Both the position numbers and the translations under genes were made by a program. 59,010 bases of DNA from an uncultured Mycoplasma sp. (GTDB lineage: Bacteria; Bacillota_I; Bacilli_A; RF39; UBA660): positions 1 to 59,010 of the forward strand of contig CAYXZZ010000002.1 of the NCBI GenBank assembly GCA_964470055.1, read 5' to 3'. Below are positions 195-36,973 of the stretch, piece after piece; position 1 is the first letter of the stretch; every line of letters begins with the position of its first letter. Below the pieces are notes generated by a model. It searched no databases. It was not told the origin of the DNA and worked only from the letters and a program-made list of their open reading frames with translations.

Positions 195-271
195 CGGGAA
201 GTGGCTCAACTTGGTAGAGCACTTGGTTTGGGACCAAGGGGTTGCAGGTTCAAATCCTGTCTTCCCGACCA
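195..271 (+). tRNA. tRNA-Pro (anticodon UGG); 3' end rebuilt by the prophage attL
   Basis: Acceptor CGGGAAG/CTTCCCG, anticodon stem-loop CTTGG-TTTGGGA-CCAAG, T-loop GGTTCAAATCC, CCA 269-271; last 17 nt lie inside the att repeat. Confidence 0.9.
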
Positions 272-275
272 TTTG
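255..275 (+). repeat. attL core (TCCTGTCTTCCCGACCATTTG)
   Basis: Exact 21-bp copy of 36038-36058; overlaps the 3' end of tRNA-Pro. Confidence 0.9.
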
Positions 276-32885: not shown

Positions 32886-33272
32886 ATGATAGATTTATTA
32901 ATTGGATTAGTAGCTGCAATGGTTGCTAATTTTTTATTGGGAACAAATTTAGCAACATTGAAGGATGAATTTGATAAAAAGAAAATGTTATCTGGTCTTT
33001 TAAAGATTGGTGGAGTGGTGTTAGGAGTAGGTGCAATGTTAGGTTGTGCATACCTAACAAAAGATATTATGGTTATTAACATTAATAATCAAAATGTAAA
33101 CTTGTTAGATGCAATGAGAATGATTTTTGTTTCTGGAATTACTTATTATGGTGCTCAAGATGTTAGCAAATTAATAAAGATATTAAATGTCAAAGTTCCA
33201 GTAGCAGAAAAAACAGAAGAAAACACAATAACAATAGCTGAACAAAACATTATTGAAATTGAGGAGGAATAA
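32886..33272 (+). CDS. Holin
   Basis: 128 aa, three hydrophobic helices, charged C-terminus, upstream of the endolysin. Confidence 0.7.
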   Translation: MIDLLIGLVAAMVANFLLGTNLATLKDEFDKKKMLSGLLKIGGVVLGVGAMLGCAYLTKDIMVININNQNVNLLDAMRMIFVSGITYYGAQDVSKLIKILNVKVPVAEKTEENTITIAEQNIIEIEEE

Positions 33273-33273
33273 T

Positions 33274-34227
33274 ATGGAAAAGCCAATGTATCCTAGTAAG
33301 ATTATTAGGATTACTCAGCGCCACGGAATAGGAAGCCATAAGAGAAATTATGCATTTGATGAAGCAAGCCAAGATGGTGGAATAAGTGGCCTAAGTGCTC
33401 CGTTCACAGGTACAATAAAAAAGATTTATCCACAAGATGCTAATGAGGTATGGCTTGAAAGTATTGAGCCAGTAGAATATCCAGATGGAACTATTGATTA
33501 TATGACCATATTGTTTGCTCATTGTAATGATGTTTCACATTTGCATGTTGGACAAGTTATTAAGCAAAATGAAATATTTTATTCTGAAGGAACTAAAGGT
33601 CAAGCGACTGGAAACCACTGCCATATAGAGTGTGGAAAAGGTAAATTTAGTGGAACAGGTTGGCATAATGATAATGGATCGTGGGATATCAATAACGGAA
33701 AGTGTGTTGAGGAATGCTTATGGATTGATGATAGTTATACTGTAAAAGAACTTGCAGGATATAATTTTAGAAATATAAAAGAAACAGAAGTTAAGAAACT
33801 GGGAACGCCAGTCGAAAGAAATGAATTGGTTGAGCAAGTAAGAGTATTTAATGAAACAATAGTACTGAGAGCTAGAAAAACGCCAAATGGAGAAGTTTTA
33901 GGACATATTATTCCTGGAATATATAACATTCTAGAAAAAGCATCAGCGGGAGATTATGAATGGTTTAGAGTTGAAAATGATTTATGGTTTGCATTCTCGG
34001 AAGAATGGATGGAACTATTAGAAGTAAAAAGTCCGGATAAGAGTGGACAAAATGAAGAAAAACCGGACTCTGCAGAAGAACTGCAAAAAGAACTAGATGC
34101 AGCATATGCAGAAATTGCAGCATTAAAAGAAAAATTAGCTAATGCTCCTAAATTGATTTTTGAAAGTACTAAACTTGATTATTATGCAATTCAATTAAAA
34201 GAAAATCAAAAATTGTACTTAGGATAA
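33274..34227 (+). CDS. Endolysin: M23 (LytM-type) peptidase plus SH3-like wall-binding domain plus C-terminal coiled coil
   Basis: GSHKRNYAFDEA and GNHCHIE metal-ligand blocks; ATG 33274 after GAGGAGGAA. Confidence 0.75.
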   Translation: MEKPMYPSKIIRITQRHGIGSHKRNYAFDEASQDGGISGLSAPFTGTIKKIYPQDANEVWLESIEPVEYPDGTIDYMTILFAHCNDVSHLHVGQVIKQNEIFYSEGTKGQATGNHCHIECGKGKFSGTGWHNDNGSWDINNGKCVEECLWIDDSYTVKELAGYNFRNIKETEVKKLGTPVERNELVEQVRVFNETIVLRARKTPNGEVLGHIIPGIYNILEKASAGDYEWFRVENDLWFAFSEEWMELLEVKSPDKSGQNEEKPDSAEELQKELDAAYAEIAALKEKLANAPKLIFESTKLDYYAIQLKENQKLYLG

Positions 34228-34247
34228 TTTTATTAATTAAAAATAAA

Positions 34248-34294
34248 AGTACTGTAGATTCGTTAAATTAACGGTTTGCAGTACTCTTTTTTTT
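34248..34294 (+). terminator. Terminator of the late/lysis operon
   Basis: Long hairpin AGTACTG...CAGTACT with inner stem CGTTA/TAACG, then a T9 run. Confidence 0.75.
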
Positions 34295-34326
34295 ATGCAA
34301 TAATCACTCACGAAAGGAGGGATTAT

Positions 34327-34503
34327 ATGTATAGAACTTGTATTTTAAATGAACAACAAGTAGCAGAATTTAACCAAGTTTATAATACTAATCTTGTTAG
34401 TATTATGATCCAACAAAAAGGCAATAAGTATTTTGCAATATTAGATTGTGATATCAAAAAGAAAATATATAAAAAAGAAGCAATAAAGTATTTTTGTGCA
34501 TAA
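34327..34503 (+). CDS. 58-aa hypothetical protein (accessory region)
   Basis: ATG 34327 after AAAGGAGGGA; the track start at 34276 lies inside the terminator. Confidence 0.45.
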   Translation: MYRTCILNEQQVAEFNQVYNTNLVSIMIQQKGNKYFAILDCDIKKKIYKKEAIKYFCA

Positions 34504-34654
34504 AATATAGAAAAAATACTAAAAAATGTTAAAAAAATATACTTTTTGTGAAAAAATTTACATTTTTTAGTAAAAAAGTTCTTGTCAGGGAAAAAAAACT
34601 GATATACAATTTAATTACAGAAGTCATCAAAAACTTTCTAAAAAAGTTTGTTAT

Positions 34655-34683
34655 TTGACTTTTTGTATAATATGTGTTATAAT
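34655..34683 (+). promoter_or_regulatory. Strong sigma-A promoter TTGACT-N17-TATAAT with TGn extension
   Basis: Consensus hexamers; a second weaker TTGTCA-N17-TACAAT lies at 34582-34610. Confidence 0.7.
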
Positions 34684-34689
34684 ATGCAA

Positions 34690-34876
34690 CACATATCTTG
34701 AAGAAGTCTTTCTTCAGATATTATACAATGTTGATTGCATTGAGAAGAGTAATCGATGAACATGTTAGACAATCAAATTTGTGTACATTGAGCGAATAGC
34801 AGCAAGAAGCGTCATGCGATGAATGTGTAAGTCTATTCAGTTGAGAAAGAAGCTTCTGCTTCTTTCTTTATTTTTG
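34690..34876 (+). ncRNA. Candidate ToxI-like antitoxin RNA
   Basis: No ORF or RBS. Contains a 5' hairpin (34693-34721), two related ~45-nt stem-loop units (34731-34776, 34794-34838) and a terminator (34843-34876). Closing stems covary (TTGATTG/CAATCAA versus GAATAG/CTATTC) around conserved RAGAAG...CGATGAA...TAAG blocks. The terminator stem is GAGAAAGAAGC/GCTTCTTTCTT followed by a T run. Confidence 0.55.
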
Positions 34877-34895
34877 TATTCAGGGAGGTATTTTA

Positions 34896-35297
34896 ATGGG
34901 AAAAAAAGCAATTGTAAATGGATGCGTATATCATATTAATTTTGGTAGAACATTTCATCCAGAATTAAAGAGTAAACATTTAGGTATTATATTTGAAATT
35001 CCATCAACAAATAATATGTTATTTTGTTTACCTTTAACAAGTCCTAAAGAAAAACATTTCAAAACTTTAGATGACTTTAATAATAGGAACGTAGCTGCAT
35101 TAAAATATCCTCATTTATATTATATAAAAGAAACAGATTCAATGATTTTAATGGAACAATTTAGAACGATTTCTATAAATAGACTTGAATCACAATATAA
35201 GAATCCCGTATCAAAACAAAAAGTTGTATTATCTGATACAGAACGAGCAAAAATATTAAAAGCATTTAATAAAGTGCTAAAAAACATTTTAAAATAA
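34896..35297 (+). CDS. ToxN/AbiQ-like type III toxin (Kid/MazF-fold endoribonuclease)
   Basis: 133 aa. GGGAGG RBS. The HLGIIFEI-x9-LPLTSPKEKHF core (TSPK at 35037-35048) matches the remembered ToxN GIVLEI...APLTSPKKWH. The N-terminal GCVYHINFG and the later EQFRTISINRL are MazF-like. Confidence 0.6.
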   Translation: MGKKAIVNGCVYHINFGRTFHPELKSKHLGIIFEIPSTNNMLFCLPLTSPKEKHFKTLDDFNNRNVAALKYPHLYYIKETDSMILMEQFRTISINRLESQYKNPVSKQKVVLSDTERAKILKAFNKVLKNILK

Positions 35298-35334
35298 TGC
35301 ATAAAAAAATATAATGGTAATATATTAATAATGC

Positions 35335-35379
35335 GGATAGCGAAGAGAAGATATGATCGATGAACTTATAAGTCTATCC
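35335..35379 (+). ncRNA. Third copy of the hairpin unit, in the toxin 3' UTR
   Basis: GGATAG-CGAAGAGAAGATATGATCGATGAACTTATAAGT-CTATCC; same length and conserved blocks as 34794-34838, with a compensatory A-T to G-C change in the stem. Confidence 0.5.
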
Positions 35380-35396
35380 AAATAGTCACGTGATAA

Positions 35397-35427
35397 AACC
35401 CAGGAATTAATCCTGGGTTGTTTTTTT
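35397..35427. terminator. Bidirectional terminator between convergent accessory genes
   Basis: AACCCAGGA-ATTAA-TCCTGGGTT, T7 run on the + strand and TTTTA on the - strand. Confidence 0.75.
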
Positions 35428-35881
35428 ATAACCAACTTTTTCTAAAGATATTTATAAAGTCATTTCTAGTACCAATATTAGATTCAAAGTATTTTTGACA
35501 TATGATATACCATCTATGATTAAATAATGCATCATTTTGGTACTTTCTGTGACATTTTTCACAAAGAGGTAATACAAATCCATACCTCATAGAGTTTTGT
35601 CGATTACGACCGGCAAAAACCTCGTGAAGATGGTCTTTTTTATTTTCGCAAAAATAACACTTATCTAAATTATCAGTGAAAACACTAAATCTGCTCTTTT
35701 CTAATTTAGCAAGTTTAGAAGATTTGTTTTTCATTTTGTATTCTTTTTTTTGTTGTAATGATGTAATTTGTTTGTATTCTTTTAATTTACAATTGCTACA
35801 TTTTGATATATGAATTAATTCTTTACTTTTCTTACAATAAATAGTTCTATTCATTTTTTGTTTTAGATGTATACAATTCAT
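35426..35881 (-). CDS. Cys-rich zinc-binding HNH / NinG-like nuclease candidate
   Basis: 151 aa; CxxC pairs plus CYFCENKKDHLHEVFAGRNRQNSMRYGFVLPLCEKCH (HNH-type beta-beta-alpha-metal pattern). Confidence 0.45.
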   Translation of the reverse strand: MNCIHLKQKMNRTIYCKKSKELIHISKCSNCKLKEYKQITSLQQKKEYKMKNKSSKLAKLEKSRFSVFTDNLDKCYFCENKKDHLHEVFAGRNRQNSMRYGFVLPLCEKCHRKYQNDALFNHRWYIICQKYFESNIGTRNDFINIFRKSWL

Positions 35882-35920
35882 AATTTAATACCAGTATTGG
35901 CACATTAATAGTAACTAAAT

Positions 35921-35931
35921 TTTACCTAATA
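35921..35931 (+). promoter_or_regulatory. TTTACCTAATA arm-type site near attR
   Basis: Exact copy of the 11-mer duplicated at attL. Confidence 0.45.
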
Positions 35932-36037
35932 AAAATATAATACTTTTACACAAATGACTATAAATGTATAGAAATCAATGCAAATAAAAACCTTTATATA
36001 TCAATGATTTTAATTGAATAACAAGTGTTTTTTCTTC

Positions 36038-36058
36038 TCCTGTCTTCCCGACCATTTG
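36038..36058 (+). repeat. attR core (TCCTGTCTTCCCGACCATTTG)
   Basis: Exact copy of 255-275; represents the displaced original 3' end of tRNA-Pro. Confidence 0.9.
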
Positions 36059-36205: not shown

Positions 36206-36973
36206 TTATTCTATTTTAGAGTCAAAGACAAAATGATCATATAATTCAAAAAGTGCACTTTTAACTATCTGAAATGAAGTTCCGTGATCATGCAATTTTC
36301 CTGCTTTGGTGCCATCCTTATAAATTCCACACTTGATATTAACAACAATATCGCCCCTTTCTAACAATTCAACAAATTTATTAAACCCACTATAGATAAG
36401 ATAATTATCATCTAAAAAGCAAGCATACCTTGCCTTACCACTATAAATAGTGTCATAAGTAACAAAACAAAGATAACGCATTTTCCTTTTCATAATTTCA
36501 TCTAACGTAGAAAGATGCCAGTAAGCCTTCTTTTCAATAATTCTCCCGTTAGAATGAGCAATAACAATATAAACTTTATTATCACTCCTATCAACTTCTA
36601 ATTTCATTTTTAAAAAATTTCCCCAATTAGAATATTTTGAACATGACAAAGTTATGAAAAGAACTTTGTTTTTTTGTTTAGATGAAGAATTGGCACCATA
36701 TTTCTGAACAATCCTTTTCATTTCAAAAAATTCAGGACCATCACAGGTACAGCTAAACATAGTAATAGGATAATCAGACGTAATTCTCTTTACCTTAATT
36801 TCAATTCCATTAAAATCAGGAACAGAAAAACTATTATTATTCAAATTCAATTCCTCTTCAAACTTCAGTCCGACTTCACCATATCCTCTTTTAGGAATTC
36901 TAATCCATCGTTTGTTTTTAACTATATCAATTTTACTTTTTAATTCCTGAAAATTAGTTTTTATAAAAATCAC
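36206..36973 (-). CDS. MvaI/BcnI-MutH-like PD-(D/E)xK nuclease, no adjacent methyltransferase
   Basis: 255 aa; G-x-G-E-x-G-L..E..L, then PDFNGIEIK (D53-x4-E58-x-K60; 36794-36820) and C-terminal HDHGTSFQI, the pattern of the MutH/Sau3AI/BcnI clade. Confidence 0.6.
   Translation of the reverse strand: MIFIKTNFQELKSKIDIVKNKRWIRIPKRGYGEVGLKFEEELNLNNNSFSVPDFNGIEIKVKRITSDYPITMFSCTCDGPEFFEMKRIVQKYGANSSSKQKNKVLFITLSCSKYSNWGNFLKMKLEVDRSDNKVYIVIAHSNGRIIEKKAYWHLSTLDEIMKRKMRYLCFVTYDTIYSGKARYACFLDDNYLIYSGFNKFVELLERGDIVVNIKCGIYKDGTKAGKLHDHGTSFQIVKSALFELYDHFVFDSKIE

Follow-up and report, generated by a model that had tools for sequence, protein, structure and literature searches.

What holds a predicted RNA-cleaving toxin in check when its gene is preceded by structured, non-coding RNA rather than by the gene of an antitoxin protein? 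The question is raised by a cassette in contig CAYXZZ010000002.1 of an uncultured Mycoplasma sp., of which a stretch of 59,010 nt was analysed (the whole of it is called the window here). The cassette is a single predicted transcription unit that begins at 34582 or 34655 and contains, in order, two RNA units (U1 and U2), an intrinsic terminator (T1), a ribosome-binding site (RBS), the gene of a 133-aa putative toxin, a third RNA unit (U3) and a second terminator (T2) (Table 1). We put at roughly three in four the probability that this cassette is a type III (RNA–protein) toxin–antitoxin system of a previously undescribed family, for which CptIN is the nearest known system.

All elements of the type III layout are present in the cassette, and they are conserved in about 50 independent loci. 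The order of promoter, repeated RNA, terminator and toxin had been recognized in an initial annotation made from the letters of the window alone, and it holds across these loci, with a toxin of predicted endoribonuclease fold. The individual features were also recovered where they had been placed, including both promoters, the leader hairpin, the terminator with its T tail, the GGGAGG RBS, the 133-aa open reading frame (ORF) and two stem-loops that coincide with U1 and U2 to within 1 nt. A third closing stem, GGATAG/CTATCC, had been named without a position; it belongs to a real unit, U3, which lies 3′ of the ORF and starts 37 nt past the toxin stop codon. Two terminator-like sites were found, compared with the 0.1 expected from shuffles.

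The RNA units carry much of the argument. In the window they share 60 % (U1/U2), 69 % (U1/U3) and 64 % (U2/U3) pairwise identity, close to the 60 % estimated at the outset, and the three already differ from one another by compensatory changes in each of three helices, including an inner 2-bp helix that reads UG/CA in U1, CA/UG in U2 and AG/CU in U3. Over the homologous loci, a pattern search followed by alignment gave 94 distinct units, with unit bounds set by the closing helices. RNAalifold and inspection agree on a nested three-helix fold, in which helix P1 is the closing helix (6 bp and an invariant C–G pair), helix P3 is the 2-bp inner helix (alignment columns 14–15 with 38–39) and helix P2 is a variable terminal hairpin of 2–3 bp. 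The internal loops between the helices (GWGAAG, GAKGRAC and WAG) are highly conserved. The compensatory changes that had been noticed in the closing stems of the window extend to the inner helix, and the fold covaries across the 94 units.

Standard pairing accounts for 95.3 % of the cells of the 12 pairs in these three helices, against 30–34 % when the 3′ partners are slid by 1–3 columns, and two-sided changes occur in 10 of the 12 pairs; raw pair counts of this kind exceed the number of independent events because the units share descent. The covariation score was 0.589, against 0.098 or less for the slid versions, and was reached by none of 500 shuffles; the shuffle control overstates the significance because the units are related to each other, a weakness from which the slid control is free. 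Mutual information ranks the same nested-helix pairs first. One further covariation, between columns 19 and 32 (positions 34746 and 34755 in U1), is non-canonical and flanks helix P2; 82 units have A·G there, 10 have C·U and two have A·A, which suggests a conserved non-Watson–Crick pair.

Several other structures were considered and set aside. A 4-bp helix formed by columns 14–17 and 38–41 found no support in the window clade when the alignment was inspected, and only the 2-bp helix P3 covaries. For a pseudoknot within the unit, mutual information returned only the nested pairs and the 19:32 pair, with the limit that invariant loops cannot reveal a pseudoknot. Antisense pairing with the toxin RBS, as in a type I-like arrangement, was rejected on inspection, as the unit sequences hold no complement of GGGAGG. 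Rfam families, including the pemK motif (RF02913) and those related to toxin–antitoxin systems, gave no match at E≤10 in window positions 34000–36000 and 34720–34880, and none at E values up to 1 in 13 homologous loci.

The initial annotation had proposed collecting homologous loci and building a covariance model of the unit, and both bore out the hairpins as conserved and covarying. The 53 homologous loci (two from viral contigs and 51 from genome contigs) are derived from metagenome-assembled genomes (MAGs) or other metagenomic sources, and their hosts are nearly all uncultured gut Bacilli, ‘Tenericutes’ or Erysipelotrichaceae MAGs. Their toxins are 39–86 % identical to the window protein, and down to the level of 39 % the layout of promoter, U1, short linker, U2, terminator, RBS and toxin is constant. 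The cassette is a self-contained element of approximately 0.7–0.85 kb found in unrelated contexts, with flanking genes that vary by locus. In the window, the covariance model matched the three units alone, at 52–64 bits, and the next match scored 13 bits. Across the 53 loci (263 kb) it gave 110 matches, eight of them outside the seed alignment, and every one of the 110 was on the toxin strand and adjoined the toxin gene. In 716 kb of unrelated viral DNA the model matched nothing except one contig already known as a homologous locus (L002). A first RNA pattern scan of viral contigs had produced one match, in which the covariance model found nothing; a looser pattern produced 86 stretches, of which only the L002 contig was real, and this set became the negative control.

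Exactly two upstream units are present in 46 of the 53 loci; no locus has three, and a downstream unit is found in 15. Three loci have one recombinant unit that joins the 5′ arm of U1 to the 3′ arm of U2 (L022, 2328–2380; L030, 135–188; L042, 2895–2945), and these look like products of recombinational deletion between near-identical interiors. Locus L025 has a downstream unit only, together with a truncated toxin gene, and three loci have no unit: the contigs of L012 and L036 break off 80 nt and 10 nt before the toxin ORF, and L053 is a gene fragment. The otherwise invariant Cys44 is replaced by Phe in the L030 toxin, the toxin gene of L041 has a premature stop, and L025, like L053, is a gene fragment; along with L022 and L042, these loci appear to be decaying. 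A circular 1.2-Mb Bacilli MAG (JBAMOY010000001.1) carries the cassette twice, at approximately 1.195–1.201 Mb (L006) and 0.624–0.630 Mb (L007), with identical unit coordinates and covariance-model scores, which points to either a pair of related prophages or a duplication of recent date.

Conservation extends to the signals around the units. The leader 5′ of U1 (34582–34694) is conserved family-wide, and the −10 box is kept at the position of promoter P1 (CATATAATAGAGTT in distant loci), as is the 17-nt spacing of promoter P2. A hairpin followed by a T-run also occupies the T1 position in homologous loci. Two inverted repeats lie in the leader, and the 3′ arm of repeat A doubles as the −35 box of promoter P2. 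When the same region was compared in L009–L052, both repeats were seen to vary compensatorily between loci (AAGTCA/TGACTT versus AAATCA/TGATTT), with mismatches that by eye are G–T; this hints at hairpins formed in RNA that starts at the upstream promoter, rather than at protein operators. Downstream, U3 may be transcribed independently from the weak promoter-like site at the end of the toxin ORF, which would start transcripts approximately 10 nt before the unit; this site could be a chance occurrence, because equivalent AT-rich −10-like hexamers recur there in other loci.

The alignments indicate that the closing stems are position-specific and that the interiors are homogenized within each locus, as in concerted evolution. 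Helix P1 is 81 % identical between the U1 copies of different loci and 83 % identical between the U2 copies, compared with 42 % between U1 and U2 of the same locus; for unit interiors the figures are 81 % within a locus and 68–72 % between loci. Most loci have interiors with an identity of at least 90 %, and the window clade, at 59–78 %, is the diverged end of the family. The initial annotation had taken diverged units as a trait of the system, which is true of the window clade; in most of the family the closing stems alone differ. Within-locus homogenization fits the expectation that the interior would be the part recognized by the toxin of its own locus, and the differing closing stems may keep adjacent units folding separately.

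The upstream units are spaced by linkers of 8–18 nt and are not strictly tandem. In all nine window-clade loci, the U1–U2 linker contains an invariant TGTACATT, which includes UACAU, and other clades have a (U/A)NCAUC-type motif in the linker; CAATG stands just 5′ of U1 and AATGC just 5′ of U3. We take UACAU to be the cleavage motif of the MazF toxins of Bacillus subtilis and Staphylococcus aureus. Because of this motif, and because the C-terminal motif of the toxin family (ETDSMILMEQFRTIS) resembles ERDSVILLEQIRTID of the Bacillus toxins, the TGTACATT linker is a plausible candidate for a processing or recognition site.

The toxin had been assigned to ToxN/AbiQ in the initial annotation, and this assignment was not upheld. 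Profile searches against the ToxN, AbiQ and CptN families returned matches that all lie below curated thresholds: ToxN_toxin of Pfam (PF13958) at E 2.3e-4 and 21.8 bits (cut-off 25), AbiQ of PADLOC at E 3.7e-4, and the NCBIfam model of CptIN (NF047359) at E 3.5e-3 and 17.2 bits (equivalog cut-off 90). The Pfam PemK_toxin profile (E 3e-3, 18.1 bits, cut-off 23.1) and a MazF-like growth inhibitor of PHROGs (E 5e-3) likewise gave only sub-threshold matches. Among 26 family members, PemK_toxin matches 25 at E<0.01 (best 5e-10), ToxN_toxin weakly matches 11, and the CptIN model weakly matches 16 (best E 1.4e-6). A first database search found 78 relatives; those that carry a name are annotated as ‘type II PemK/MazF family toxin’ or ‘endoribonuclease’. 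With a profile search, 373 clusters were obtained, and an E value of 1e-10 or less was reached by only 21 of 1.84 billion cluster representatives, with a clear gap to generic MazF-like proteins. The toxin family is compact and well bounded.

A PDB sequence search with the single protein found nothing; the family profile matched MazF/EndoA only, and left ToxN, AbiQ and CptN unmatched. The AlphaFold model (mean predicted local distance difference test score, pLDDT, of 90; predicted template-modelling score, pTM, of 0.81) was compared with known structures by Foldseek, and the best matches were MazF of S. aureus, B. subtilis and Mycobacterium tuberculosis (E approximately 2e-5, TM scores 0.68/0.78). 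CptN (4rmo_A) ranked 12th, at E 5e-5, and ToxN and AbiQ were absent from the top 50 matches. Alignment by hhalign with an Escherichia coli MazF sequence that is consistent with the PDB matches of the family profile gave a probability of 92.6 % and placed T48 opposite the catalytic T52 and E23 opposite E24. At the position of the catalytic R29 of MazF stands the invariant H28. The catalytic residues, described at first as of the ToxN type, are in this way kept as far as the Thr is concerned, and depart from MazF in having His28 at the place of Arg29. Relative to E. coli MazF there is also a 16-residue insertion (56–71) that includes the invariant R64. Other invariant residues include E23, C44, P46, T48, S49, P50, K51, K53, H54, D81, S82, Q88, R96 and Y101. 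On sequence profiles and modelled fold, the toxin is a MazF-superfamily endoribonuclease that stands between canonical MazF and CptN/ToxN, outside the curated type III families, and is closer to canonical MazF/PemK than to ToxN/AbiQ.

A mechanism can be proposed by analogy with ToxIN and CptIN (PMC3401426, PMC4627078), from which we infer toxicity, neutralization, RNA processing and phage defence for the cassette. Most transcripts would end at T1, giving an excess of RNA over toxin mRNA, and read-through past T1 would yield the toxin mRNA, each copy of which would also bear U3. The RNA units would act by direct binding to the toxin, blocking its active site, with the conserved interior (GWGAAG ... 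GAKGRAC ... WAG) as the recognition surface, while the position-specific closing stems would prevent neighbouring units from misfolding together. The toxin would probably cleave the precursor in the single-stranded linkers (UGUACAUU, and CAAUG or AAUGC before units). Were transcription of the cassette to stop, for example because an infecting phage shuts it off or the prophage is lost, the labile RNA would decay and the freed toxin could cleave cellular and phage RNA, leading to abortive infection or to prophage stabilization.

A number of points weigh against a type III system of this kind. The type III antitoxins with solved structures are all pseudoknots whose repeats are tandem and almost identical (PMC4627078); in the present family, covariation favours a nested three-helix hairpin, and the upstream units differ in sequence. 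The toxin scores under the curated cut-offs of every type III model tried (ToxN_toxin and CptIN), and public records label its relatives as type II PemK/MazF toxins. As His28 stands in for the catalytic Arg of MazF, enzyme activity is assumed. CptIN gave no phage protection in E. coli (PMC3401426), and therefore a defence role is not to be presumed. A further point is the pair of conserved inverted repeats in the promoter region.

A reading that we consider rather doubtful is that the family forms an evolutionary bridge from type II MazF to type III. A canonical, probably dimeric, MazF-type RNase would be kept inactive by a fixed heteromeric pair of RNA modules, U1 and U2, acting together as an RNA counterpart of MazE, possibly uncleaved; U3 would be an antidote carried by each message, and the promoter repeats would serve autoregulation. 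To our knowledge, promoter autoregulation dependent on RNA or on the complex is unreported for type III systems.

The main rival to a type III system, and an unlikely one in our judgement, is that the RNA units are cis-regulatory: the MazF-like protein would bind or cleave its own leader and 3′ untranslated region (UTR), in the manner of ribosomal-protein leaders, and such autoregulation need not involve harm to the cell. The units do sit in the 5′ leader and 3′ UTR of one mRNA, Rfam classes the pemK motif (RF02913), found upstream of PemK-type genes, as cis-regulatory, and the terminator after U2 could serve as an attenuator. However, that terminator, with its fixed stem and U-tract, lies past the units (no search was made for conserved anti-terminator pairing), and the units are clear of the RBS. 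A fixed pair of units with a separate downstream copy suits stoichiometric titration more than a switch. A MazF fold in which the catalytic Thr is conserved suggests an RNase of general action, one that would have to be kept inhibited, and no gene for another inhibitor is present.

Strict linkage of RNA and nuclease, conserved single-stranded linkers and an accessory position in a prophage would also suit processed small RNAs with some other job, as decoys or guides against phage or host, alongside a protein that is their dedicated processing nuclease. We think this very improbable. The conserved parts of the unit are common to the loci, unlike the variable sequences of guides; the part that does vary, a short-looped hairpin of 2–3 bp, is not large enough to specify a target; and no effector gene accompanies the cassette.

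To look for a protein antitoxin, every ORF of 35 aa or more that lies up to 1.2 kb from the toxin gene was clustered across the 53 loci and the window (54 in all), and no conserved partner ORF emerged, in agreement with the earlier claim that the cassette has none. The sole real flanking family to reach five loci was that of a phrog_7566-like gene, and the larger ORF clusters were artefacts that run antisense to the toxin gene or overlap with the conserved RNA. In every locus, the 300 nt before the toxin are non-coding RNA. The leader had been described as free of ORFs; it does contain two with TTG starts, of 33–34 aa (34655–34759 and 34698–34799), which lack an RBS and are not conserved. The ATG-initiated leader peptides of the window clade, MLIALRR... 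(23 aa, before U1) and MRIAKRRYDR (10 aa, before U3), were rejected as genes: they too have no RBS, the ATG before U1 is directly followed by TAA in most loci, the frames are broken by helix-P2 loop lengths that differ by 1–6 nt in non-multiples of three, and just six of the 54 loci have an ORF in common there, one that overlaps the conserved RNA. The 58-aa ORF between the endolysin gene and the cassette was likewise rejected, as Pfam and PHROGs gave no match for it and it falls outside the ORF families found in at least three loci.

An ordinary type II MazEF-like module, with an antitoxin encoded by a tiny or fast-evolving leader ORF or elsewhere in the genome, would agree with the annotation of relatives as PemK/MazF, with the PemK_toxin matches of 25 of the 26 members, with the short ATG or TTG ORFs in the leader and with promoter-overlapping palindromes that resemble type II operators, but is the least credible explanation of all, given leader ORFs that are unconserved, RBS-less and frame-shifted by loop length, leader substitutions that are compensatory in RNA helices, and a cassette that moves as a self-contained unit into unrelated contexts.

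The genomic setting is that of a prophage end. The two copies of a 21-bp direct repeat probably mark attL and attR of a prophage of approximately 35.8 kb, integrated in tRNA-Pro by means of the integrase encoded next to it, and the cassette lies 0.6 kb inside attR. Its position in the slot between the lysis genes and attR, as first described, is borne out by the holin and endolysin genes on its 5′ side and by the second repeat copy. Relatives of the convergent phrog_7566 gene also stand 3′ of the cassette in L001, L003, L006 and L024, and the likely reason for this recurrent neighbour is that the prophages are related, not that the gene and the cassette are linked in function. A tblastn search of phage GenBank records found no annotated phage relatives of the toxin, and the toxin therefore has no annotated phage context.

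Table 1. Features of the cassette and its surroundings, in window coordinates (CM, covariance model)
Feature	Position	Strand	Remarks
Promoter-like site P1, TTGTCA-N17-TACAAT	34582–34610	+	consensus scan 10/12
Leader inverted repeat A, GAAGTCA/TGACTTT	34620–34662	+	arms 34620–34626 and 34656–34662
Main promoter-like site P2, TTGACT-N17-TATAAT with TG extension	34655–34683	+	consensus scan 11/12
Leader inverted repeat B, ATGTGTT ... AACACAT	34672–34694	+	brackets the −10 box of promoter P2
5′ leader hairpin	~34693–34721	+	common only to the closest locus, L003
RNA unit U1	34732–34775	+	closing stem UGAUUGC/GACAAUCA; CM match 34728–34778, 64.3 bits
Single-stranded linker	34776–34793	+	holds TGTACATT at 34782–34789
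RNA unit U2	34794–34838	+	closing stem GAAUAGC/GUCUAUUC; CM match 34790–34841, 51.9 bits
Intrinsic terminator T1	34843–34868	+	T tail to 34876; between RNA units and toxin gene
RBS, GGGAGG	34883–34888	+	
Toxin gene, 133 aa	34896–35297	+	MazF/CptN fold (predicted); ATG at 34896
Weak promoter-like site, TTTAAA-N16-TATAAT	35288–35315	+	end of toxin ORF
RNA unit U3	35335–35379	+	closing stem GGAUAGC/GUCUAUCC; CM match 35331–35382, 58.2 bits
Intrinsic terminator T2	35397–35419	+	T tail to 35427; ends cassette
tRNA-Pro	195–271		
Direct repeat TCCTGTCTTCCCGACCATTTG (21 bp), first copy	255–275		3′ end of tRNA-Pro; 35.8 kb from second copy
Integrase gene	358–1530	−	adjoins tRNA-Arg and tRNA-Pro
Holin gene	32886–33272		5′ of cassette
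Endolysin gene	33253–34227		5′ of cassette
58-aa ORF	34327–34503	+	strong RBS (AAAGGAGG); gap between endolysin gene and cassette
Phage-type gene, 151-aa Cys-rich protein (phrog_7566, unknown function)	35426–35881	−	convergent to cassette, before attR
Direct repeat TCCTGTCTTCCCGACCATTTG (21 bp), second copy	36038–36058		
MvaI/BcnI-family restriction endonuclease gene	36206–36973	−	just beyond attR; Pfam E 3.5e-36

The position at a prophage end in uncultured gut Bacilli makes the cassette a candidate superinfection-exclusion or prophage-stabilization module of the human and animal gut. The family would also have consequences for annotation and discovery: proteins automatically labelled ‘type II PemK/MazF toxin’ may be under the control of RNA, searches for type III systems that rely on repeats can miss units with diverged stems, and the covariance model built here offers a direct route to more such loci. 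The small size of the parts (a 133-aa protein and 45-nt RNAs) suits structural work on the evolving recognition of RNA by MazF-fold proteins.

Among known systems, CptIN comes closest, and we regard the cassette as a new family of the type III kind because the thresholds for CptIN are not reached and the RNA fold supported by covariation and the layout differ. The two share the order of promoter, about two RNA units, terminator and toxin, a unit length of approximately 45 nt, gut Firmicutes hosts (Coprococcus/Eubacterium rectale for CptIN, PDB 4RMO), a toxin fold and a weak profile similarity. The cptI units have a mean length of 44.8 nt (range 40–48), with 1.9–3.4 repeats per locus (PMC3401426). 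The differences are that the window protein scores far under the cut-off of the CptIN model (17 versus 90 bits), that the units described here are spaced by linkers and have position-specific closing stems, and that some clades carry an extra unit 3′ of the toxin gene. Covariation supports a nested three-helix hairpin here, whereas CptI is described as an H-type pseudoknot with an A-minor twist (PMC4627078), and the cassette is prophage-borne, whereas all 33 cptIN loci of one study were chromosomal (PMC3401426).

With ToxIN and AbiQ, the cassette has in common its general architecture, an inferred logic of terminator attenuation, a toxin of the Kid/MazF RNase superfamily, a Thr-Ser-x-Lys stretch (T48 S49 P50 K51) and the sub-threshold ToxN_toxin and AbiQ matches. 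It differs from them in that these matches remain below the gathering threshold and neither toxin is among the top 50 structures; ToxI, moreover, consists of up to 5.6 identical tandem pseudoknot repeats of 36 nt, whereas here two units lie upstream and their stems always differ. MazF, PemK and EndoA supply the best fold and profile matches, and the catalytic Thr and the Glu before the β1–β2 loop align with theirs, but the cassette has no MazE-like gene, has His28 for Arg29 and the insertion at 56–71, and its PemK_toxin score is below the cut-off. The pemK RNA motif RF02913 (Weinberg et al. 2017), which we take to be a structured RNA upstream of PemK-family genes in Firmicutes, differs in that its covariance model is matched neither by the window units nor by the 13 loci searched.

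The tenpIN systems offer a precedent, as some of their loci have non-identical repeats (PMC12283969), but they have a toxin of another family, and their repeats are tandem and upstream only. No TenpN-type match appeared in the Pfam, NCBIfam and PADLOC scans, for which the presence of TenpN models in the libraries is unconfirmed, or among the top 50 PDB folds. The only ToxN-like type III families listed in a 2025 survey are toxIN, cptIN and tenpIN; the survey names AvcID and AbiF as further systems with RNA antitoxins, and notes non-identical repeats in some tenpIN loci only (PMC12283969). In the literature searched, we found no account of such RNA paired with a MazF/PemK-type toxin. New relative to the known systems, as read from the aligned loci, are the fixed number of two upstream units, the non-equivalence of these two and, in some clades, a further copy in the 3′ UTR of the toxin message. 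Should it be confirmed, the family would add to the type III systems a fourth toxin lineage, close to canonical MazF, with a different RNA fold and a different layout of two non-equivalent units upstream of the toxin gene and one downstream.

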